Part shown: one piece after another, positions 50,826 through 63,921 of the stretch
How the letters are laid out: every line of letters begins with the position of its first letter
Position numbering within the stretch: the stretch's first letter is position 1
Translations under genes and position numbers: made by a program
Notes under the pieces: generated by a model
What the model saw: the letters and a program-made list of their open reading frames with translations, nothing else
Database searches by the model: none
What the model was told of the DNA's origin: nothing
Source: an uncultured Bacillales bacterium
Lineage (GTDB): Bacteria > Bacillota_I > Bacilli_A > RFN20 > CAG-826
DNA length: 64,000 bases
Assembly (NCBI GenBank): GCA_947302535.1
Contig: CAMYVX010000004.1
Location: 221 to 64,220, forward strand
Direction: 5' to 3'

Positions 50826-50901
50826 GGGTCTGTAGCTCACCTGGGAGAGCGCATCGTTCGCAACGATGAGGCAGCCGGTTCGATCCCGGTCAGATCCACC
50901 A
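50826..50901 (+). tRNA. tRNA-Ala with anticodon CGC
   Basis: Manual fold of the 76-nt sequence GGGTCTG TA GCTC ACCTGGGA GAGC G CATCG TTCGCAA CGATG AGGCA GCCGG TTCGATC CCGGT CAGATCC A CCA. It has the G3:U70 wobble pair (alanine identity element), discriminator A73 and an encoded CCA. The anticodon loop is TTCGCAA, reading anticodon CGC. Confidence 0.85.
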
Positions 50902-51097
50902 GAAATACCCGCTACCAGCTTTGCTGGTAAACATAGATAAGAAGTCAATCTACGGGAAAGATTTCAAAACACAAGAAGGATGATAATCCATCCTTGGTAA
51001 GTATAGCCCCCATTTATGTAACTATACGAAAGCATTTGAGTCATAGAGATTATTCGCTAGCTTGTTGGGGCAAGCGGCTTGATGCGAAATCATCTTC

Positions 51098-51289
51098 CTA
51101 TTTGGAAGATTTTTTCTTTTCAAGAACGTCAATTAACTCCTCGTCTTCTTTTGATAAATGCCAATTGAGAAATGGCTTGGAGAAATACTTTTGGGGAATG
51201 TTTTCAATCCTAACGACGCAAAGATAAGCGGGGCTGTCATCTTTAGGGTTTGGATTACTATTCATCTGAATATATGTGTCGTCGGCCAA
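51098..51289 (-). CDS. Doubtful small ORF abutting repeat A1
   Basis: 63 aa from a TTG start that lies inside the repeat boundary. No recognisable domain. It may be a gene remnant or spurious. Confidence 0.15.
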   Translation of the reverse strand: MADDTYIQMNSNPNPKDDSPAYLCVVRIENIPQKYFSKPFLNWHLSKEDEELIDVLEKKKSSK

Positions 51290-51698
51290 ACTCGTTTATT
51301 CGGTTTTGCACAAAACGACTTATCCAACATAGATGAGGCCTCCGTGTGAGGTCTTTTCTTGTGTCTCAGACCAGGCTCGAACTCCCGACCTCTTGCGAAC
51401 GATGCGCTTTCCCAGCATGAGCTAGCCATATTCGAGTTCTAAGGAACGTTTATATAAATATAAAGCATTTACTTGCTTGCCTGATTTCTATGTCCCAGAT
51501 GGCTTGTTTTTCAAATGTCTCTCATGGTGTGACAAAAAGAGCTGTCTATATAACGTATAGTATTGATGTGAGCAATCGAAGTAGCCTCACGCCTCATTAT
51601 AAACTCCATCTCACATATTTTAAGTTCATTTTACCAAAGCGCATATCTAAAGCTGGCCTACTTGCTACTTCAGGGCTGGCTTTTTCTTTGCTTTAACA
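51277..51698 (+). repeat. Repeat A, copy 1 (about 420 bp)
   Basis: Near-identical to 53039..53462, and its first 92 bp also recur at 57905..57996. It contains the palindrome GTTTTGCACAAAAC, a CCTC-CGTGT-GAGG hairpin followed by TCTTTTCTT, and at 51368..51428 (reverse strand) a degenerate tRNA-Ala-like segment that shares the 15-mer GCGCATCGTTCGCAA with the real tRNA. The track ORF 51490..51696 (MSQMACF…) lies inside it and is probably non-coding. Confidence 0.85.
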
Positions 51699-52085
51699 TT
51701 GTTAACGATGCTTACACTAGGTATGCTATGTAGTTGTGGGGGATATGTTAAGAATTATTCTGCAACCATTTTGATTACTTCTTGTCAAGGTGATGAAGCA
51801 AGTATGAAATTTGATACATTTAATGGAACGTATAATTTCAAATTAAGAAGAGATAATATGGCTGAGTATACACTTGATTATGAAGCAAGTCTAGCTGAAG
51901 GTGAAATGAGTGTTTATATCGGAGTTGATGGTGAAAAAGAATTATTATTTGTAGTTAAGGGTGGAGAATCCTACGACGAAACGATTACACTTCATAATAA
52001 ATATGATAATGAAAAAACAATCTACATTATTCTTGAATCGACAGGTAAATGTGTAGATGGTGATTTTGAGTTTGAGTACAATTAA
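51699..52085 (+). CDS. Hypothetical small secreted or lipoprotein-like protein
   Basis: 128 aa with a short hydrophobic N-terminus containing Cys residues (MLTMLTLGMLCSCGG). The called start is TTG; an ATG lies at 51708. It begins exactly where repeat A1 ends. Confidence 0.45.
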   Translation: MLTMLTLGMLCSCGGYVKNYSATILITSCQGDEASMKFDTFNGTYNFKLRRDNMAEYTLDYEASLAEGEMSVYIGVDGEKELLFVVKGGESYDETITLHNKYDNEKTIYIILESTGKCVDGDFEFEYN

Positions 52086-52134
52086 TTTAAGTGAAACAAA
52101 CAAATAAATTAGAATTTGTAAAGGAGAAACAACG

Positions 52135-52917
52135 ATGAAAATTGACGTTAATGAATTGTTTGAAGAACTTGGAAGCCTTTCGCAAGTAGAAGCGATTGCT
52201 CTTGGTGGGTCAAGAGCGACTGGTAGAAATGATGAAAAATCAGATTACGATGTGTATGTGTACATAACAAGCAGTATTGATGAAAATGTGCGAAGAAATA
52301 TTCTGGAAAAATACTGCAGATATATGGAAATCGGGAATTCCTTTTGGGAACTTGAAGATGATGTTACCTTAAATGATGGAATTGATATGGACATCATTTA
52401 CAGAAATATGCAGGATTTTGAAGACATGGTTTCCTCTGTTGTAATAGACTGTGTGCCATGTAATGGCTATACCACTTGTATGTGGCATAATCTCATTACC
52501 GCTAAAATTGTAATAGATAAAAATGGAAAACTGAGCGCTCTACAGGAAAAATATCGGATTCCATATCCAAAGAAGCTAAAGGAGAAGATCATATCCAATA
52601 ATCTAAAGCTTCTTAGTGGTATGTTACCGTCATTTGATATGCAGATAAAAAAGGCAGAGAATAGAGGGGACCTTGTAAGCGTCAATCATAGGGTTGCTGA
52701 ATTCCTCGCAAGTTATTTCGATATTATTTTTGCACTGAATGAGATGACACACCCTGGGGAGAAGAGAATGCAAAGTATTTGTTCTGAGGAATGCAAGATT
52801 TTGCCTAATCGCTTTGACGAAAATCTGAACAGATTATTTGCAGGAATGTTCAGAGAGAGTATATCAGATGTAATAAATGATATGATAATTGAGATAAAAA
52901 CGATTACGAAGATGTAG
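52135..52917 (+). CDS. Pol-beta superfamily nucleotidyltransferase with a C-terminal helical domain (LnuB/ANT-like architecture)
   Basis: N-terminal motif LGGSRATGRNDEKSDYDVYVY (GS…DxD) and a downstream DMDIIY motif, 260 aa. This is the architecture of lincosamide and aminoglycoside nucleotidyltransferases. Confidence 0.6.
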   Translation: MKIDVNELFEELGSLSQVEAIALGGSRATGRNDEKSDYDVYVYITSSIDENVRRNILEKYCRYMEIGNSFWELEDDVTLNDGIDMDIIYRNMQDFEDMVSSVVIDCVPCNGYTTCMWHNLITAKIVIDKNGKLSALQEKYRIPYPKKLKEKIISNNLKLLSGMLPSFDMQIKKAENRGDLVSVNHRVAEFLASYFDIIFALNEMTHPGEKRMQSICSEECKILPNRFDENLNRLFAGMFRESISDVINDMIIEIKTITKM

Positions 52918-53038
52918 TCAAATTCCTATTTATCGATTAGATATTATTATTAAACGATTACAAGCAGGTGGTTTCATTATTAAACGATTATATTTAAATT
53001 GTATTAATATTGTCGTACCTTGCCACATAAGTAAATCA

Positions 53039-53462
53039 TGTCGTTGGTCAAACTCGTTTATTCGGTTTTACACAAAACGACTTATCCAACATAGATGAGG
53101 CCTCCGTGTGAGGTCTTTTCTTGTGTCTCAGACCAGGCTCGAACTCCCGACCTCTTGCGAACGATGCGCTTTCCCAGCATGAGCTAGCCATATTCGAGTT
53201 CTAAGGAACGTTTATATAAATATAAAGCATTTACTTGCTTGCCTGATTTCTATGTCCCAGATGGCTTGTTTTTCAAATGTCTCTCATGGTGTGACAAAAA
53301 GAGCTGTCTATATAACGTATAGTATTGATGTGAGCAATCGAAGTAGCCTCACGCCTCATTATAAACTCCATCTCACATATTTTAAGTTCATTTTACCAAA
53401 GCGCATATCTAAAGCTGGCCTACTTGCTACTTCAGGGCTGGCTTTTTTTCTTGCCTTTAACA
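53039..53462 (+). repeat. Repeat A, copy 2
   Basis: About 98% identical to 51277..51698, differing by a few substitutions and a small indel near the 3' end. The track ORF 53252..53473 is the same frame as in copy 1. Confidence 0.85.
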
Positions 53463-53506
53463 TAGTTAACTAAAATAGCATTCAGTACCCCGTGCGATCA
53501 TCAGTG

Positions 53507-53594
53507 TTTTCTTGTTCGCGAATGGATTGAATCACGACATAATACGGATAGTGACTTTTAGACAAAACTGAATGGATGAGTTTGTACAACTACA
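53507..53594 (+). repeat. Repeat B, copy 1 (about 88 bp)
   Basis: TTTTCTTGTTCGCGAATGGATTGAATCACGACATAATACGGATAGTGACTTTTAGACAAAACTGAATGGATGAGTTTGTACAACTACA. Related copies lie at 59027..59114, 63144..63231 and, partially, 63953..64000. Its 3' 49 bp is an imperfect inverted repeat of the 5' 49 bp of repeat A. Confidence 0.8.
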
Positions 53595-54063
53595 ATATGA
53601 TTTTGGATAATCTAACATTTTCTTAATATCATGTGTAATCATGTAACCATTTAATTTTGTTTTTGAATTCTCGCTTCTTGTTTCTACTAAAACGACGATA
53701 AATGGATGATGGCCATTTCTTCTATAAAAACGAAAATGATACTTGTCGTGGCCATTATACTTTCTGTATCTAGACATATAAAAAATCACCTTCCTATATA
53801 TCGTTCCTTAAGAAAGAGTTGTGATTGGGGGGAACGATATATTTAGGCAATTAAACAATATAGTGCAGCGATTGTTCCTAATGTTTGTACATATAGAGTA
53901 CTTTGGGAATAAAGCAATAGCAATAAAAACTTTGTATTTATTGAATGTTAGCAAAAATAAGCTTGTTACATAGTAACAATTAGCAGTATTGCGTCGTGAC
54001 TGCTTGCTTCCTCTTCTTCTTCTTATAATTTGACTATAAAAATATAAGGGAAGCCTATAAATC

Positions 54064-54810
54064 ATGCTGTTTTGTCTTTTCAAGCAAAACACCATGAAAA
54101 AAGTTGTTATGAAAACGCTATTAGAAAATATACTTTCAAATATCATCAATTTAGGAATTGTTTTTACAAACGAATTAGAATTTCAGTTTTATCTTGCTCA
54201 AGAATTGAAATCAAATTCAACTGTAAAAGATGTTCTATTTGAGGTTCCTTCTTTTTCAAAACCTTGGTCTATTGTTAGTAAAAATTTAAAATCAATATCA
54301 AAAAAGGATAAACAATATACAGATTTGATTGCTTGTTTAAAAAATGGAATGCATGTAGCAATTGAATTAAAATATAAAACACCTAACAAAGCACATATTT
54401 ACTTGACTTCTAATGGCCCTGTGCTAACAATGGCACAAGGCGCTTATTATTTAGGTGCTTATTCTTTTCTGAGAGATGTTGAAAGACTAGTTAATGTTAT
54501 CTCAAAGAAAAGATTTTATGTAAACAATATTACCATTGATGAAGCTTATGCTATTTTTTTAACGAACGATTCAAATTACAGGAATAATTCTTTCACTAAA
54601 GGAAGTGGCGTTTGGAAGAAATTTGCGATTAATGATGGTGCAACAATCCCAAATAAGATTTTAACGACCCCTAGTAGTTATAATAAATTACATTTACCAC
54701 AATTAAATCTTTCTGGTTTAAAAACGAAGGGGGTTTTTAATTGGACTCCAAAATCCACTATAACTAATAATTCTTCTGATTTTGCATATATAGTTTTGGA
54801 GGTTAAATAA
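54064..54810 (+). CDS. Hypothetical protein with a PD-(D/E)xK nuclease-like motif
   Basis: 248 aa with D…(hydrophobic)xELKYK arrangement (YTDLIACLKNGMHVAIELKYK). The true start may be MKKVVMK at 54094. Confidence 0.5.
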   Translation: MLFCLFKQNTMKKVVMKTLLENILSNIINLGIVFTNELEFQFYLAQELKSNSTVKDVLFEVPSFSKPWSIVSKNLKSISKKDKQYTDLIACLKNGMHVAIELKYKTPNKAHIYLTSNGPVLTMAQGAYYLGAYSFLRDVERLVNVISKKRFYVNNITIDEAYAIFLTNDSNYRNNSFTKGSGVWKKFAINDGATIPNKILTTPSSYNKLHLPQLNLSGLKTKGVFNWTPKSTITNNSSDFAYIVLEVK

Positions 54811-54813
54811 AAC

Positions 54814-57540
54814 ATGAAAAACAAAAAATGTATTTTAGGTATTAGTATAATTGGATCAGTTCTGCTAGCTTGTTCAACTCTCTCATTGATTATTAATACA
54901 AATTTTTCTATTGATTTTTCTTACGCGGGTAATACAACATATGGTATCTCTTTTAATTCCTCGAAAAATAAATTTCACTCATATACAGGCAACACCGCTT
55001 ATGATGGTGAGGCCACAATTAAAACAGAATTAGATAATGATGTTAACTTCTCTTATTACCAGATTAAAGGTGTGACCACTACATGGCACGTTTTAGGTAG
55101 TGGTGGTTATTTTTATAACACCGATCCAATTCACGGAATTGAAAGTATCACGTTGAATTTCAAAACCAACAATGCCGATTATGATATTCTCTATTCCTAT
55201 GATAAAAGTTTTGATCATTCTCAATCATTTGTCTCATCTACTACAGGTGGTACGACATATAGTTTTGATGGATATAAGCCAAACTATTTTAAAGTAGTTA
55301 ATAATAGTGGCGCTAACTTTAATATTTCTTCAATCGATATCGTCTTATCTTGTTTGAATAATTATCCAACCTTATCTATCAGTAGTGAGAACCCAACAAT
55401 GGGCACTGTTTCTGGTGGAGGAGTTAAGATTCAAGGAACACAAACCACAATTGTGGCCACTCCAGATCAAGGCTATAGATTTGTTGGCTGGTATGATGGA
55501 GAGACTCTAATTTCCTCTCAATCATCATATACATTCACTATTGAAAATGATGATGTAACTTATGTTGCTAGATTTACATATCAAACATATAACTTAGTGG
55601 TTCAATCTGAATCGTCAACAAAAGGGACTGTTTCTGATTCCACAGGACAATATGATTATCTAACCCCAGTTACTATTGAAGCCACACCAAAACCAGGTTA
55701 TTCATTCAATGGCTGGTACGAAGGAAATAATCTTGTTTCTAACAGCAACCCATATAATTTCACAATGCCTTATACAAACAAGACATATACCGCTAAATTT
55801 AGTACAAATTCCTATGAATTAACTCTTGTGAACGCTAATAGTGAGCTAGGTAGTATTACTGGAGCGGGAACTAAAACATATGGTAGTAGTGTGACTATTA
55901 CCGCCACTCCTAATACCGGTGTATCTTTCCTAGGCTGGTACAATAGTGGTGATAATCTAATCTCTTCTTTAACATCCTATACATTCAATATGCCTTATGA
56001 AGATTTAACATATACAGCTAAATTTGCATGGACTCCATATTCAGTTAGTTTAAGCATTAATGATGATTCTATGGGCTCTGTCAGCGGCAGTGGCTCTTAT
56101 ACTTATGGACAAGAAGTATCTTTAGTGGCCACTCCTAACGAACATTATTCATTCTTTGGTTGGTATGATGGAGAAACATTATTATCTCAAAAAACAACAT
56201 ATGTATTTGATATGCCTGATAACTCATTAGATTATCAAGCTAGATTTGTCCAAAACCATAGCCTCTATATTTATAGCGAAGACGAATCTAAAGGAACCGT
56301 TTCTTATCCAAATGAATGGGGGGAAGGGTTAGAAGTAACTATAACTGCGAACGCGGATACTGGATACGCTCTCGACTACTGGTATGATGAAGATTTAAAC
56401 CCAGTTTCCTATGATTTTTCTTATACATTTATCATGCCAAATAATGATGTTACACTCTGGGCAGCATTTACCCAAGGATATACGTTAACAGTGATATCTA
56501 GTGATGAAACAAAAGGCGCTGTCACTGGTAGCGGACAATATGTTGCAGGCAGAAATGTCACTGTTACAATGAACTATCTTTCCGGAACATTTAAGGGCTG
56601 GTTTGATAGTAATAATCAATTAGTTAGTATAGATAATCCTTACACATTTGTTATGCCAACCAACAATTATTCTCTTGAAGCTAGATTTATAACGCAAGAA
56701 GAAGAATGGAATATAGCCCATGGTGTAACACCAATTATTTCTAATGATGGAAAAACAATCACATATGGTTTATACCCTCAAACAAATATTGATGATCCTT
56801 CATTGATATCCACACTTAATGGTTTAACCACTCCTGAAACGAATGGATGGTACTTATACGAAGATGAATACTATGCAAAAACAAGCGCCCATCCATATTT
56901 TTCGAATTATAAGTTTGATAATGGTGAAACAATTGTAAGTGGTACAACTTATTGGTTTAAATGTGAGCCTATCGTTTGGAATGTTTTAAGCAACAATAAC
57001 ACAGAGTATTCTATCCTCTCATCTTTATTAATAGATTCACATAGATATAACGAATCTTATGATGGCACTAAAGATGGCCATTATGCAAATAATTACAAGT
57101 ATTCGGAAATAAGAAGCTGGTTAAATGATGACTTTTATAATTCTGCATTTGCTCTAGACAATAGTTATATCCAAACAACAAACGTCGATAACAGTGCTTC
57201 CACTACAGATAGTTCAAGTAATCAATATGCCTGTGAGAATACAAATGACAAGGTATTCTTACCTAGTTATAAAGACTATCTTAATAGCTCATACGGATTC
57301 TCAACATCAACCAGTTCAACCAGTTCTAGATACTGCAGAACTACTGACTGGGCAAGAGCAAGAGGCTCAAGCTATTACAGTGGCTCTTATCAATATAATG
57401 GCGAATATTGTACCCGTTCTCCTTACAGCTACGGCCCCTACTATGCGTGGATTGTCTATGGCGATGGTAGTCTCCGCACCAACGACATCTGTTACAATGG
57501 TCGCAGTGTTCGCCCCAGCCTTTCACTTCATATTGCGTAG
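54814..57540 (+). CDS. Large surface lipoprotein with about 8 tandem InlB-B/Listeria-Bacteroides-type repeats and a distinct C-terminal domain
   Basis: Signal peptide with lipobox LLAC. Repeated modules of about 90 aa carry the signature G(S/T)VSG…TATPN.GY.F.GWYDG…YTF.MP…Y.A.F. The C-terminal domain of about 290 aa ends …YNGRSVRPSLSLHIA, reminiscent of FISUMP/DUF1566-like C-terminal domains. Confidence 0.8.
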   Translation: MKNKKCILGISIIGSVLLACSTLSLIINTNFSIDFSYAGNTTYGISFNSSKNKFHSYTGNTAYDGEATIKTELDNDVNFSYYQIKGVTTTWHVLGSGGYFYNTDPIHGIESITLNFKTNNADYDILYSYDKSFDHSQSFVSSTTGGTTYSFDGYKPNYFKVVNNSGANFNISSIDIVLSCLNNYPTLSISSENPTMGTVSGGGVKIQGTQTTIVATPDQGYRFVGWYDGETLISSQSSYTFTIENDDVTYVARFTYQTYNLVVQSESSTKGTVSDSTGQYDYLTPVTIEATPKPGYSFNGWYEGNNLVSNSNPYNFTMPYTNKTYTAKFSTNSYELTLVNANSELGSITGAGTKTYGSSVTITATPNTGVSFLGWYNSGDNLISSLTSYTFNMPYEDLTYTAKFAWTPYSVSLSINDDSMGSVSGSGSYTYGQEVSLVATPNEHYSFFGWYDGETLLSQKTTYVFDMPDNSLDYQARFVQNHSLYIYSEDESKGTVSYPNEWGEGLEVTITANADTGYALDYWYDEDLNPVSYDFSYTFIMPNNDVTLWAAFTQGYTLTVISSDETKGAVTGSGQYVAGRNVTVTMNYLSGTFKGWFDSNNQLVSIDNPYTFVMPTNNYSLEARFITQEEEWNIAHGVTPIISNDGKTITYGLYPQTNIDDPSLISTLNGLTTPETNGWYLYEDEYYAKTSAHPYFSNYKFDNGETIVSGTTYWFKCEPIVWNVLSNNNTEYSILSSLLIDSHRYNESYDGTKDGHYANNYKYSEIRSWLNDDFYNSAFALDNSYIQTTNVDNSASTTDSSSNQYACENTNDKVFLPSYKDYLNSSYGFSTSTSSTSSRYCRTTDWARARGSSYYSGSYQYNGEYCTRSPYSYGPYYAWIVYGDGSLRTNDICYNGRSVRPSLSLHIA

Positions 57541-57904
57541 TTTACAAAACAATAATCGACCACTTATCAAAAGCAAAAGAGGTGGCATTATGCAAGAAAG
57601 AAAAATAAAATGATTAGCAATGGATTAAAGAATAAACCTCTATGATACCGGCAAGCAAAGTCAATTGTCCCGTTTTTGTATAATGATTTGAAAAGCGATG
57701 ATAAGTGACAAAAACTGCATAAATAATAGCATTTTCGCCGCAAAACCCTAATATTTTAAAATTTTATTGTAACTTATATATGGTGTAGAAGCCAGAATAA
57801 TACACTAGCTCAATTAAAAACAGGACATTGAGTTCTCCTGTCCCGAAAATATAAGAGGTAGCATGTTATTATCGTAGCGCTTCAGATCCACCATAAATAT
57901 GAAC

Positions 57905-57996
57905 TGTCGTCGGCCAAACTCGTTTATTCGGTTTTGCACAAAACGACTTATCCAACATAGATGAGGCCTCCGTGTGAGGTCTTTTCTTGTGTCTCA
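57905..57996 (+). repeat. Repeat A, copy 3 (5' 92 bp only)
   Basis: Identical to the first 92 bp of repeat A, then diverges into a GACCTC-CTCGT-GAGGTC hairpin followed by TTTTT (58005..58026) and a CATTGTTCGAAACAATG palindrome. A 12-nt copy of the tRNA-Ala 3' end (TCAGATCCACCA) lies at 57883..57894. Confidence 0.8.
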
Positions 57997-58065
57997 AACT
58001 CGCCGACCTCCTCGTGAGGTCTTTTTCATTGTTCGAAACAATGTATAATTACTATTGAAAGCAAA

Positions 58066-58938
58066 ATGATTAGATTTGTAAATTTTCAACATTGTTATTA
58101 TCAACAAGTTTGTGATTTTTTGATTGAAATTAACAAAGAGAATAATTATCACAACAATTGGAATTGGGCGCGATTTGAATGGATGTATGAGCACCCTTTA
58201 ACCCAAAAAGAACTACTACATTATATGGGTCTATGGTTTGATGATAATCATCTTGTGGGTGCGGCTTTAATCGATATGTTTTTTGGTGAAGCGTTCGTTG
58301 GTGTACTAAATAAATATCAAAGCTTATATCCAGAAGTATTAAAATACGCTTTTGATAATTTAAAAGATGATCAAGGCTTAGGCATATCTTTCCGCGATGA
58401 AAATATAGATGAAATTAATGAAGCGATTAAACAAGGCTTTAGTAAAGTTGAAGTAGAAGAAATAGATTGTGAAATTAATCTTGATAAGGAATTTGCTATT
58501 TCCTTGCCTGAAGGATTTAGTGTTGAAACGTTTGATGCTGAAAAAAACGCTAAAGAAATAGAATGGTTATTTTATCAGGGTTTTGATCACGGAAATGATA
58601 AAGAAGAATTTCTAAAACAACATAAAGAGCCAACAGGATCTAGACCTCATTTTAATCCATATCTGTGTATTGTTATTAGAAATAAACAAGGTGAACTGGT
58701 GGCTAGCGCCTCAACTTGGTATGACCCAAGAACTGATTACGCTTATGTAGAACCAGTTTGTGTCATTCCTGAATGTCGAAAGATGGGCTTAGGAAAGGCT
58801 GCGGTCTACACCGCGATTAATCACGCTAGAGAATTAGGTGCAAAAAGAGCAATAGTTAATTCTGGACAAGAATTCTACCAAAGGATAGGTTTTAGAAAGA
58901 AAAACCATTACTCCTTCTATTGGAAAAAAGAACTATAA
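58066..58938 (+). CDS. GNAT family N-acetyltransferase
   Basis: C-terminal GNAT motif A (VIPECRKMGLGKAAVYTAINHARELG), 290 aa. Confidence 0.75.
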   Translation: MIRFVNFQHCYYQQVCDFLIEINKENNYHNNWNWARFEWMYEHPLTQKELLHYMGLWFDDNHLVGAALIDMFFGEAFVGVLNKYQSLYPEVLKYAFDNLKDDQGLGISFRDENIDEINEAIKQGFSKVEVEEIDCEINLDKEFAISLPEGFSVETFDAEKNAKEIEWLFYQGFDHGNDKEEFLKQHKEPTGSRPHFNPYLCIVIRNKQGELVASASTWYDPRTDYAYVEPVCVIPECRKMGLGKAAVYTAINHARELGAKRAIVNSGQEFYQRIGFRKKNHYSFYWKKEL

Positions 58939-59026
58939 AGTCACCCTTAAACATTTCTACATTTACACTTTTTCAAAAATAACATAATCAAAGTAAAAGA
59001 ATTGGTCGAGTGAAATATCTCGGTTT

Positions 59027-59114
59027 TTTCTTGTTCGCGAATGAATTTAAACACGACATAATACGGATAGAGACTTTTGTGCAAAACAAGATGGATGAGT
59101 TTGTGTAACTACAG
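59027..59114 (+). repeat. Repeat B, copy 2
   Basis: TTTTCTTGTTCGCGAATGAATTTAAACACGACATAATACGGATAGAGACTTTTGTGCAAAACAAGATGGATGAGTTTGTGTAACTACA. It follows the GNAT gene. Confidence 0.8.
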
Positions 59115-59168
59115 AAAATCCCCCCGTTTATTGGACCGTTTCGGTACAATGATTTAGGGGGGTTTTTA

Positions 59169-59762
59169 TTACTCTTTGTAGAGAAAATCAATCTTAAAGA
59201 GGTTGGTCTTTAAGTCCGCCATAAGCTGTTTAATCTCGGCTTTATAGGATTGATTTTTGTGATGGATTAAATATGTTAATGCAGAGACAAAACCACCATA
59301 GATGAATGATGCGGTGACTGGGATTGAATACTTAAATGGTCTAATCTTATCGATTTCCACTAATAGTTCACTGATACCATCTTCACAGACTCTGGTTATG
59401 ATGTTGATGAGTTCAAAACTGTAGTTCTTTTCTAGTGAACGGATATATTCAATATTTGTTTCAATATATTCGATAACCTTACCCAATATACTGATGAGGT
59501 ATTCAGCAATATCATCGATTGATGTTGTTTGTTTCTTTGGAACCTGATTCATGATGCTATCTTTGATTTCGTTAATCGCATCATCTAATAGGAGATACTT
59601 ATCTTCATAATACTTATAGAATGTCATCCTATTAATCAGCGCGTGCTCGCATATATCTTTAACTGTAATCTTCTCTAATGGACGATCCTTTAATAATGCG
59701 AGAATTGATTCTCTTAATACCTTTCTAGTCTTTTGAATTCTTAAGTCTTCTTTGTACTGCAT
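59169..59762 (-). CDS. TetR/AcrR family transcriptional regulator
   Basis: N-terminal helix-turn-helix (ITVKDICEHALINRMTFYKYY), 197 aa. Divergent from the MMPL transporter gene. Confidence 0.85.
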   Translation of the reverse strand: MQYKEDLRIQKTRKVLRESILALLKDRPLEKITVKDICEHALINRMTFYKYYEDKYLLLDDAINEIKDSIMNQVPKKQTTSIDDIAEYLISILGKVIEYIETNIEYIRSLEKNYSFELINIITRVCEDGISELLVEIDKIRPFKYSIPVTASFIYGGFVSALTYLIHHKNQSYKAEIKQLMADLKTNLFKIDFLYKE

Positions 59763-63150: not shown

Positions 63151-63231
63151 GTTCGCGAATGATTATAAACACGACATAATACGGATAGAGACTTTTGTGC
63201 AATTCTTGATAAGTGAGTCTGTGTAACTACA
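63144..63231 (+). repeat. Repeat B, copy 3
   Basis: TTTTCTTGTTCGCGAATGATTATAAACACGACATAATACGGATAGAGACTTTTGTGCAATTCTTGATAAGTGAGTCTGTGTAACTACA. Confidence 0.8.
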
Positions 63232-63325
63232 AGTTAGAAGGTCGCTAGTAATGGAGACTTTTTGTGTGGCACTTTTGTGATAGTTATTTGATATAATGAA
63301 ATCACTTATTCAAGGAGAAAAAGTT

Positions 63326-63613
63326 GTGAAAAAAGAATTACTAAAAGGTCTTAGCAATGAACAAATCGCTAAAATTGAGAAATGTAAAAACACAGACGAA
63401 ATATTAGCTTTAGCTAAATCTGAAGGCATTGAACTTACCGATGAACAATTAGAAGCTGTCAATGGCGGATGTGGTAAATCAAAAGAATGGTACGAAATTG
63501 ACAATATGCAATGTCCAGAATGTCTTAACAGCCACTGTATGGAAAAAGTCTCAGACGCATGGTATAGATGCAAGTACTGTAATAAAATTACAGTCAATAA
63601 AAATCTTCAATAA
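63326..63613 (+). CDS. Nif11-like leader, double-glycine, Cys-rich precursor peptide 1 (putative RiPP/bacteriocin precursor)
   Basis: Leader (V)KKELLKGLSNEQIAKIEKCKNTDEILALAKSEGIELTDEQLEAVNGG, then core CGKSKEWYEIDNMQCPECLNSHCMEKVSDAWYRCKYCNKITVNKNLQ with 6 Cys. Preferred start is GTG at 63326 with the RBS AAGGAG at 63313..63318; the track ORF starts at 63296. Confidence 0.7.
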   Translation: MKKELLKGLSNEQIAKIEKCKNTDEILALAKSEGIELTDEQLEAVNGGCGKSKEWYEIDNMQCPECLNSHCMEKVSDAWYRCKYCNKITVNKNLQ

Positions 63614-63630: not shown

Positions 63631-63921
63631 TTGAACATGAAACAAGAATTATTGAAAGGTTTAACCAAAGAACAAATTGAAAAAATTAAAGCGTGTAAGA
63701 ATCAAGAAGAATTATTGGCGCTAGCCAGAGCTGAAGGAATCGAACTTACTGACGAACAACTCACCGCTATTAATGGTGGTGGTGCTTGTAGTGTTATTTC
63801 AGATATTGGAGATTATATCAATCCATATGATTGTCCAAGATGTGGCAGTAATAATATTAAAGACAAAGGCACCTATTATATCTGCCAAAGCTGTGGCTAC
63901 AAAATTGAAAATTACGATTAA
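63631..63921 (+). CDS. Nif11-like leader, double-glycine, Cys-rich precursor peptide 2 (paralogue)
   Basis: Leader MNMKQELLKGLTKEQIEKIKACKNQEELLALARAEGIELTDEQLTAINGGG, then core ACSVISDIGDYINPYDCPRCGSNNIKDKGTYYICQSCGYKIENYD, which has a zinc-ribbon-like CPRC…CQSC pattern. Confidence 0.7.
   Translation: MNMKQELLKGLTKEQIEKIKACKNQEELLALARAEGIELTDEQLTAINGGGACSVISDIGDYINPYDCPRCGSNNIKDKGTYYICQSCGYKIENYD

Follow-up and report, generated by a model that had tools for sequence, protein, structure and literature searches.

A probable scar of the tRNA-Ala(CGC) 3' end beyond about 7 kb of mosaic inserted DNA in an uncultured Bacillales bacterium

A tRNA-Ala(CGC) gene lies in the last quarter of a 64,000-nt stretch of DNA from an uncultured Bacillales bacterium (assembly GCA_947302535.1, contig CAMYVX010000004.1, positions 221 to 64,220; this whole stretch is called the window here), and a second copy of the last nucleotides of that gene stands about 7 kb downstream. 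With moderate confidence, we regard this second copy and the short conserved module around it, which we call the relic, as an attR-type scar of what used to be the 3' end of the tRNA gene, left behind when about 7 kb of DNA entered by site-specific recombination after a smaller element carrying a GNAT gene had already inserted at the same place. As tRNA-linked genomic islands go, a displaced tRNA end with about 7 kb of mosaic mobile DNA in front of it is nothing out of the ordinary. The preliminary description of this DNA had proposed an island of that length, and a displaced 3' end does bound about 7 kb of inserted DNA. The segment is not a single unit, however, since a 2.3-kb element is nested within it.

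The last 12 nt of the tRNA gene (TCAGATCCACCA) occur exactly twice in the window, on the same strand, at 50890-50901 and 57882-57893; the second copy had previously been placed one nucleotide to the right, at 57883-57894. Beyond the 12-mer there is one mismatch and then an identical AAATA, so that 17 of 18 positions agree. The window therefore has the border by which tRNA-integrated islands are recognised, with an intact tRNA on one side and a repeat of its 3' end on the other. From base composition, 0.0017 exact copies of the 12-mer would be expected on the same strand of 64 kb. This narrow figure is lower than the 0.01 or so first offered, while a broader test, in which a 12-mer from anywhere in the 50 nt surrounding the tRNA end may recur within 13 kb downstream, gives about 0.03 per locus; when that test was applied to 36 related loci (related loci and contigs are numbered with the prefix L), it returned one chance match, in a coding region of L055. 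By themselves, these statistics are suggestive and only moderate. Two short contigs from other assemblies, L082 and L083, share the arrangement of the window; L082 and L001 derive from one sample, and L082 may represent the data of the window itself. The comparable 12-mer in the L055 gene and the broad expectation are what can be said for a chance match, which we consider extremely improbable. The narrow expectation speaks against it, and it is effectively refuted by homologous modules in four other lineages, one of them with a 29-nt repeat, and by an ancestral terminator just beyond the second copy. It is this homology that settles the question, and the repeat is judged not to be due to chance because of it.

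The relic module recurs on a contig (L076) whose GNAT gene is 89% identical to that of the window, on the Logan contigs L086 and L087, and in two further lineages, L088 and L089, which came from a pattern scan of JGI metagenomes. The module spans about 57 nt, contains the 12-mer, and follows the pattern GGTAGC-[R][K]GTTATTA[W]CGTA[R]C[S]C-TT[Y]AGATCCACCA, with a trailer behind it. When the 90 nt before A3, the element end that follows the relic in the window, are aligned to sequences of tRNA-Ala with trailer, z is 4.8-10.5 relative to shuffled sequence. Upstream of the 12-mer, the relic scored 15 when compared with the tRNA of the window, not significantly above the mean of 14.6 for shuffles, and the signal in that part arises only by comparison with relatives and from the conserved module. 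The relics of the five lineages are closer to one another than to their own resident tRNAs. Viral contigs were scanned with the A end, with the relic and with the att core, each time with 0 matches. Two other candidate relics were rejected: the flanks of A1 and A2, which by eye resembled decayed tRNA ends, were not matched by the relic profile at E = 100 and scored z < 1.6 against four tRNA plus trailer sequences, and CAGACAACCA, which precedes an A end in L019, turned out to be a B-end terminus.

The best argument for 57882-57893 as a former end of the tRNA gene is the order of the features that follow it, because relic, spacer, element and terminator stand in the order of a native tRNA 3' region. 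Where relatives have an A-type element end after the intact tRNA, it stands at a distance of 7-16 nt, and the window has the same junction in the form of the relic, 11 nt and then A3. Directly after the far end of that element comes a long hairpin of the form CCCCC..TTATTGGACC..GGTAC..GGGGG with a T-run, which is homologous to the sequence directly after the intact tRNA-Ala(CGC) in L044, L035, L046 and L005 and, in L095, to what comes behind the B end. In the window, this terminator hairpin also ends a convergent TetR gene. An IS3-family transposase gene follows the hairpin in L035 (11302-12714); the idea that CCCCC...GGGGG might be an IS3 inverted repeat was dropped when the alignment showed a conserved tRNA terminator. 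What comes directly after the intact tRNA in other species, either the terminator or an A end, is thus found past the relic in the window.

A homologous island was found in a sister species represented by L054, L086 and L087, the latter two being 97% identical to L054 over 5.7 kb. There, a perfect 29-nt repeat (CTTCAGATCCACCATAAATACCCGCTACC) is shared by the tRNA end with its trailer (L054 12373-12401) and the relic (L086 5879-5907), a comparison that joins two assemblies of one species. Its identity ends sharply on both sides, where the flanking sequences are unrelated. The repeat bounds about 9 kb that encode a 968-aa protein, a 1110-aa protein and a C11 peptidase. The islands of L054 and the window have homologous end segments and entirely different genes. 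RmuC, encoded just upstream of the tRNA, is 61-64% identical between the species compared, whereas the non-coding end pieces are 75-91% identical, a difference that points to horizontal spread or selection and away from neutral decay.

Several observations weigh against a site-specific integration. The exact identity in the window is only 12 nt (17/18 with the extension), which is short for an att core. The island had been said to hold no integrase, and indeed no integrase or other recombinase was found in the Pfam scan of its open reading frames (ORFs), nor in the L054 island, nor among the listed PHROG matches (best 25 of 44 families) for the rest of the window, with its 42 upstream ORFs. 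When 50 downstream ORFs of relatives were scanned individually against Pfam and PHROG, in five batches of ten, no tyrosine integrase was seen, and two 79-ORF batch scans of representative downstream ORFs gave no integrase among the best 25 families listed; only IS3 and TnpB turned up among the families listed in these scans of relatives. In about 100 loci examined, no cognate integrase-bearing integrative and conjugative element, integrative and mobilizable element or prophage was found for this att site. G+C content stays at 0.32-0.39 throughout the window, with no step at 50.9 or 57.9 kb. The proposed check, that relatives should carry the tRNA followed by sequence like that past 57894, showed such an arrangement across species, where an A end or the terminator stands in that place, and no same-species empty-site variant of the insert was found. 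Overall, the proposed integrase-mediated insertion is supported in part, by its att-like borders and by the homologous L054 island with the 29-nt repeat.

To these points must be added that the relic is tRNA-like further upstream too, as it keeps GGTAGC and a 5-6-bp inverted repeat at the place of the T-arm, and that in L086, L088 and L089 it is followed by TAAATACCCGCTACC, a hairpin and a terminator, a shorter structured trailer analogous to the block behind the real tRNA. Both features would fit an old duplicated tRNA gene, and the segment between the two copies is clearly mosaic. One could accordingly suppose that the relic is a decayed second tRNA-Ala gene with its trailer, derived from an ancient tandem or segmental duplication, and that the DNA in between accumulated through unrelated insertions with no 7-kb site-specific integration. 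We regard this as unlikely. A perfect 29 nt with sharp edges and unrelated flanks, as seen in the L054 species, is the pattern of an att core and not of uniform decay; the relics of five lineages are, as noted, closer to each other than to their own tRNAs; and the end segments are far more conserved than the divergence of RmuC would lead one to expect.

Returning to the scar left by site-specific recombination, we suggest the following history, in which the two repeats, the relic module, the end segments in common with L054, the old terminator and the nested element are demonstrated, and both the order of events and the action of a tyrosine-type recombinase are inferred. In the original state, the terminator hairpin would have stood about 12 nt after the tRNA, and two layers of insertion would then have separated them. 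In the first, the GNAT inverted-repeat element (57905-59113) would have inserted 11 nt after the CCA, the position at which elements of the same family sit in about a dozen related genomes. In the second, the segment of about 7 kb (50902-57881) would have entered later by site-specific recombination, with a crossover somewhere in the final 13 nt or so of the tRNA and as much as 15 nt of trailer. A new tRNA end with its structured trailer block (50902-51122) would have arrived with this DNA, and the old end would have remained on the opposite side. No recombinase is encoded in the segment, which, if still mobile, would depend on an enzyme encoded elsewhere, like a cis-mobilizable element. The nested 2.3-kb element may have been gained later or may already have been aboard. 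The junctions are precisely defined, at 50901/50902, 57881/57882, 57904/57905 and 59113/59114 (Table 1).

Table 1. Features at and downstream of the tRNA-Ala(CGC) gene, in window coordinates
Feature	Positions	Strand	Basis or remarks
tRNA-Ala(CGC), intact, encoded CCA	50826-50901	+	ARAGORN; Rfam tRNA model, 57.7 bits; homologue after rmuC in at least 37 related loci
Direct repeat, copy 1 (12 nt of tRNA end, 6 nt of trailer)	50890-50907	+	Exact search and extension
Structured block, conserved, at left end of insert; own terminator at 51092-51110	50902-51122	+	75-88% identical to L054 12387-12604
Nested inverted-repeat element of 2.3 kb (51277-53594), flanked by its 5-bp target duplication, ATATG	51272-53599	+	
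Degenerate tRNA-Ala(CGC)-like sequence in A1	51355-51424	-	Second copy in A2 at 53117-53186
Nucleotidyltransferase cassette, 841 nt (ORF 52135-52917, NTP_transf_2 and DUF4037)	52104-52944	+	Pfam
Gene pair: 248-aa protein (weak PD-(D/E)xK-like fold) and 908-aa InlB B-repeat/DUF6273 lipoprotein	54064-57540	+	Pfam; structure model and Foldseek
Conserved 45-nt block near right end of insert	57636-57680	+	91% identical to L054 21115-21159; also in L089
Relic module (GGTAGC..GTTATTATCGTA..TTCAGATCCACCA) with 11-nt spacer; direct repeat, copy 2, at 57882-57893	57856-57904	+	
Second inverted-repeat element: A3 end, GNAT gene (58066-58938), B2 end	57905-59113	+	1.2 kb
Long hairpin with T-run, ancestral tRNA terminator	59114-59170	+	Directly after B2
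A-type ends (TGT...ACA terminal inverted repeats of about 50 nt)	51277-51325, 53039-53087, 57905-57953	+	
B-type ends (TGT...ACA terminal inverted repeats of about 50 nt)	53545-53594, 59064-59113, 63182-63231	-	
B3, third B-type end; no A partner or target duplication identified	63182-63231	-	Downstream of TetR and MMPL genes; 59.1-63.2 kb might be a further cassette

The tRNA gene itself is the only one that ARAGORN calls in the 64-kb window, as had been reported. Its cloverleaf score, its CGC anticodon and the identity pair G3:U70 (G3:T70 in the DNA) mark it as a tRNA-Ala, and the pair and the encoded CCA can be read directly in the sequence. The gene had been thought unusual for a low-GC genome and perhaps strain-specific, neither of which held. 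A scan of species-representative genomes with RmuC, the product of the gene upstream of the tRNA (Pfam), yielded 74 related loci (best RmuC identity 76%), all of them from uncultured rumen, gut or faecal metagenome-assembled genomes (MAGs) classed as "Bacilli" or "Erysipelotrichaceae". tRNA-Ala(CGC) lies 3' of rmuC on the same strand in 37 of the 74 and nearby on the opposite strand in one more, and many of the remaining loci stop shortly past rmuC. It is accordingly a trait inherited within the clade and not the oddity of a strain; in 21 genes of the window, 17% of the alanine codons are GCG. Genes for tRNA-Ala(UGC) and tRNA-Ala(GGC) were seen in L068 and L101. All relatives compared are MAGs or short contigs, and exact look-ups of RmuC (from its first ATG) and of the GNAT protein returned no record.

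That the tRNA marks a boundary between core and accessory DNA is correct as far as synteny goes. The genes upstream are conserved, and the first 46 kb of the window hold housekeeping genes such as those for DnaN, the clamp loader, release factors, SecA and UvrB, while the window's downstream genes were not found 3' of rmuC in the 74 related loci, apart from a weak match in L061 and paralogues of the small-peptide genes in L019. The stretch 50902-51122 is an exception, being a conserved structured block shared with L054 and not random accessory DNA. This block of about 220 nt follows directly on the tRNA and forms several hairpins, with seven pairs showing compensatory changes between the window and L054, and a terminator-like site was detected at its end. 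It had no Rfam match at E up to 1. From these features of its sequence, it may be an undescribed RNA that is co-transcribed with the tRNA.

Toward the other end of the insert, a conserved 45-nt block lies about 180 nt upstream of the relic in three lineages. Its presence would suit the idea that the relic is a functional RNA or a protein-binding regulatory site whose likeness to a tRNA end is mimicry rather than a scar, as would the invariance of GTTATTAWCGTA in five lineages and a hairpin just upstream with compensatory changes (ACAGGA/TCCTGT against ACGGGAA/TTCCCG). The T-arm-like stem is, however, not kept in the window or in L089, the 180 nt or so between the 45-nt block and the relic are not conserved, and L088 lacks the block altogether. 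The block was also considered as a promoter, and a consensus scan of that region gave no support on the + strand. We think a functional site of this kind very unlikely to be the explanation.

Between its conserved end segments, the insert is a mosaic. The nucleotidyltransferase (NTase) gene and a small lipoprotein gene sit in the nested element, which runs from the A1 end through these two genes and A2, a 432-nt internal duplicate (53039-53470) that is 98% identical to A1, to the B1 end. The nested element is 93-95% identical in L095 and L098, where it starts 13-14 nt after tRNA-Ala(CGC), and this recurrence indicates that it moves as a unit. Short-read contigs of the same species break in A1, B1 and A3 (in window coordinates, L001 ends at 51331, L082 starts at 53497 and L083 ends at 57934), so the assembly of the window across the 98%-identical A1 and A2 warrants caution. 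Both A1 and A2 contain a degenerate tRNA-like sequence whose identity is 76% with the real tRNA and reaches 83% with the tRNAs of relatives; it points to the element end and lacks about 5 nt of the anticodon stem. Neither ARAGORN nor Rfam called it.

The NTase gene is the sole gene of an 841-nt cassette with a wide distribution. The identical 260-aa protein is listed in 1448 contig-index blocks, and the DNA of the cassette is 99.5-100% identical in seven unrelated contexts, in five of which another tRNA gene (Leu-CAA, Thr-CGT or Met) lies upstream, at 0.1-0.3 kb in four cases and 2 kb in L103. Iterated motifs, TTAAACGATTA..GGTGGTTTCA or TAACGATTA..AGGGTATGCAAA, flank the cassette (window 52945-53030; L101 520-940; L096, L097 and L100) and have the appearance of arrays of protein-binding sites. 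In L096, L097 and L100, the sequence flanking the cassette begins right after the CCA of two different tRNAs and includes a stretch resembling a tRNA 3' end.

The remaining cargo is the pair of genes for the 248-aa and 908-aa proteins, which is conserved in another species (L090 10001-13413; 65% aa and 70% nt identity) with no tRNA, relic or A/B end nearby. The 248-aa protein has a D...ELK motif and weak fold matches to SduA, Exo5, Cas4 and TnsA, all with E above 0.02. It was considered as a hidden recombinase and set aside, as it shows only a weak PD-(D/E)xK nuclease fold (best E 0.027), with the match to TnsA covering 74 columns only.

The inverted-repeat elements at this locus are bounded by A-type ends, which read TGTCGTYGNCCAAA..TTATCC.. 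and start at 51277, 53039 and 57905 in the window, and by B-type ends, which are the inverted form, terminating in ..TGTAACTACA at 53594, 59113 and 63231. An alignment of 14 ends shows two or three subterminal repeats per end (..AGTCACTTATCC.. and ..AGACTTATCC..), which are, to judge from their sequence and placement, putative transposase-binding sites. A profile of these 14 ends, run over 75 loci (about 1.2 Mb), matched only downstream of tRNA-Ala(CGC). The initial TGT falls 11-16 nt after the CCA in L006, L019, L073, L043, L049, L060, L025, L095 and L098, and weaker A-like starts lie 12-13 nt after it in L018 and L020, which brings the total to at least 11 genomes. Elements stand in tandem with spacers of 4-7 nt in L019, L025, L076 and L098, as expected if insertions repeatedly reuse one target. 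The target duplication is exact (ATATG) for the element at 51277-53594 and agrees at 4 of 5 positions in L073; none was seen for A3/B2, L008 or L095. No gene for TnsA, TnsB, TnsC, TniQ or a DDE transposase was found in the copies of the window, L008, L019, L025, L046, L073, L095 and L098, and the transposases that do occur in relatives, IS3 in L035 and TnpB in L044, are not linked to A/B ends.

In the GNAT element, the gene encodes 290 aa and is without 484 nt that its 456-aa homologues (89-93% identical) have, both the short and the long form being common in the protein database. Two small genes beyond B3 (63296-63613 and 63631-63921) encode Nif11-like leader peptides, which have a GG cleavage motif and cores that are rich in Cys and resemble zinc ribbons. 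In relatives, up to 11 paralogues of these genes stand in arrays, interleaved with A/B ends and GNAT genes (L019 12116-16716; L078).

Given how closely these elements home to the tRNA, one may ask whether they displaced its end themselves, an element inserting about 13 nt after the tRNA having carried a copy of its target, tRNA end and trailer, at its distal end, so that the insertion would have produced an apparent long direct repeat. The right edge of the 29-nt repeat (...CCCGCTACC) does fall within 1-2 nt of the start of an A-type end in L049 and L076, and the tandem arrays just described show that members of the family pile up at this site. The 7-kb segment, however, is bordered neither by an A end on the left nor by a B end on the right, the elements that can be delimited give target duplications of 5 bp and not of 12-29 nt, and no transposase was found in any copy. 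We consider this explanation quite improbable.

Known systems offer comparisons for the island and for the A/B elements. Cis-mobilizable elements (CIMEs) keep attL and attR and have lost the genes for integration and transfer (PMC5704250). The window segment resembles CIMEs and other islands at tRNA 3' ends in that an intact tRNA borders it on one side while part of the tRNA 3' end is repeated on the other, and its cargo of surface proteins, a nucleotidyltransferase and a nuclease-like protein, like the accretion of further elements at the same site, is what one expects of tRNA islands. As in CIMEs, no integrase was found inside the segment, and on its sequence it has attL and attR without genes for integration or transfer, so that it would qualify as a putative CIME. 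It lacks the integrase and the distinct base composition of integrase-type tRNA islands, and an arrangement like that of an empty site was seen only across species. It differs from tRNA islands and CIMEs in that its end segments include the structured block of about 220 nt that replaces the tRNA trailer, and from typical tRNA islands in the exact repeat of only 12 nt.

For the A/B elements, the obvious comparison is with Tn7 and its relatives. Tn7 inserts about 25 bp past the TnsD site, and island formation at attTn7 was reportedly described by Parks and Peters in 2007. Tn7-like transposons home to fixed sites downstream of tRNA genes (PMC9881144, PMC10293859). The A/B elements share with them the 5'-TGT...ACA-3' termini, the two or three subterminal repeats per end, at least in the nested element a 5-bp target duplication, tandem elements about 5 nt apart, and a fixed orientation and distance from a conserved gene end (11-16 nt after the CCA). 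Unlike Tn7, they have no TnsA, TnsB, TnsC, TniQ or DDE transposase in the copies examined, they are cassettes of 0.5-8 kb with ordinary cargo, and their insertion point is much closer to the recognised gene. As they fail the defining test of gene content, we do not file them as Tn7-like. Like miniature inverted-repeat transposable elements and other non-autonomous elements mobilised in trans, they are short, with terminal inverted repeats of about 50 nt, no transposase and several copies per locus. In contrast to such elements, they carry genes and are not dispersed, being found only 3' of one tRNA gene in 1.2 Mb.

We tentatively raise a broader possibility, which we hold to be doubtful at present, that in this clade of uncultured Bacilli from gut and rumen a two-tier cassette system, mobilised in trans, serves the 3' flank of tRNA-Ala(CGC). 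One tier would consist of TGT...ACA cassettes that home to a point about 13 nt past the CCA, and the other of integrase-less islands flanked by a copy of the tRNA end, in which an undescribed structured RNA of about 220 nt replaces the trailer. The enzymes for both could be encoded elsewhere in these small genomes, and they could be a target-specific recombinase of a domesticated or a new kind.

A tRNA gene that serves as an insertion hotspot, and a 3'-end scar that marks a decayed island, are a common situation, and the value of the present case is mostly local. Its by-products include transposase-less cassettes that target a tRNA, a structured block fused to a tRNA trailer, and an NTase cassette of 841 nt that recurs almost unchanged in many unrelated contigs, for the most part beside tRNA genes. 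Above all, the displaced tRNA end explains the architecture of a hypervariable locus of surface-protein genes and cassettes in a little-known clade of Bacilli from the rumen and gut.

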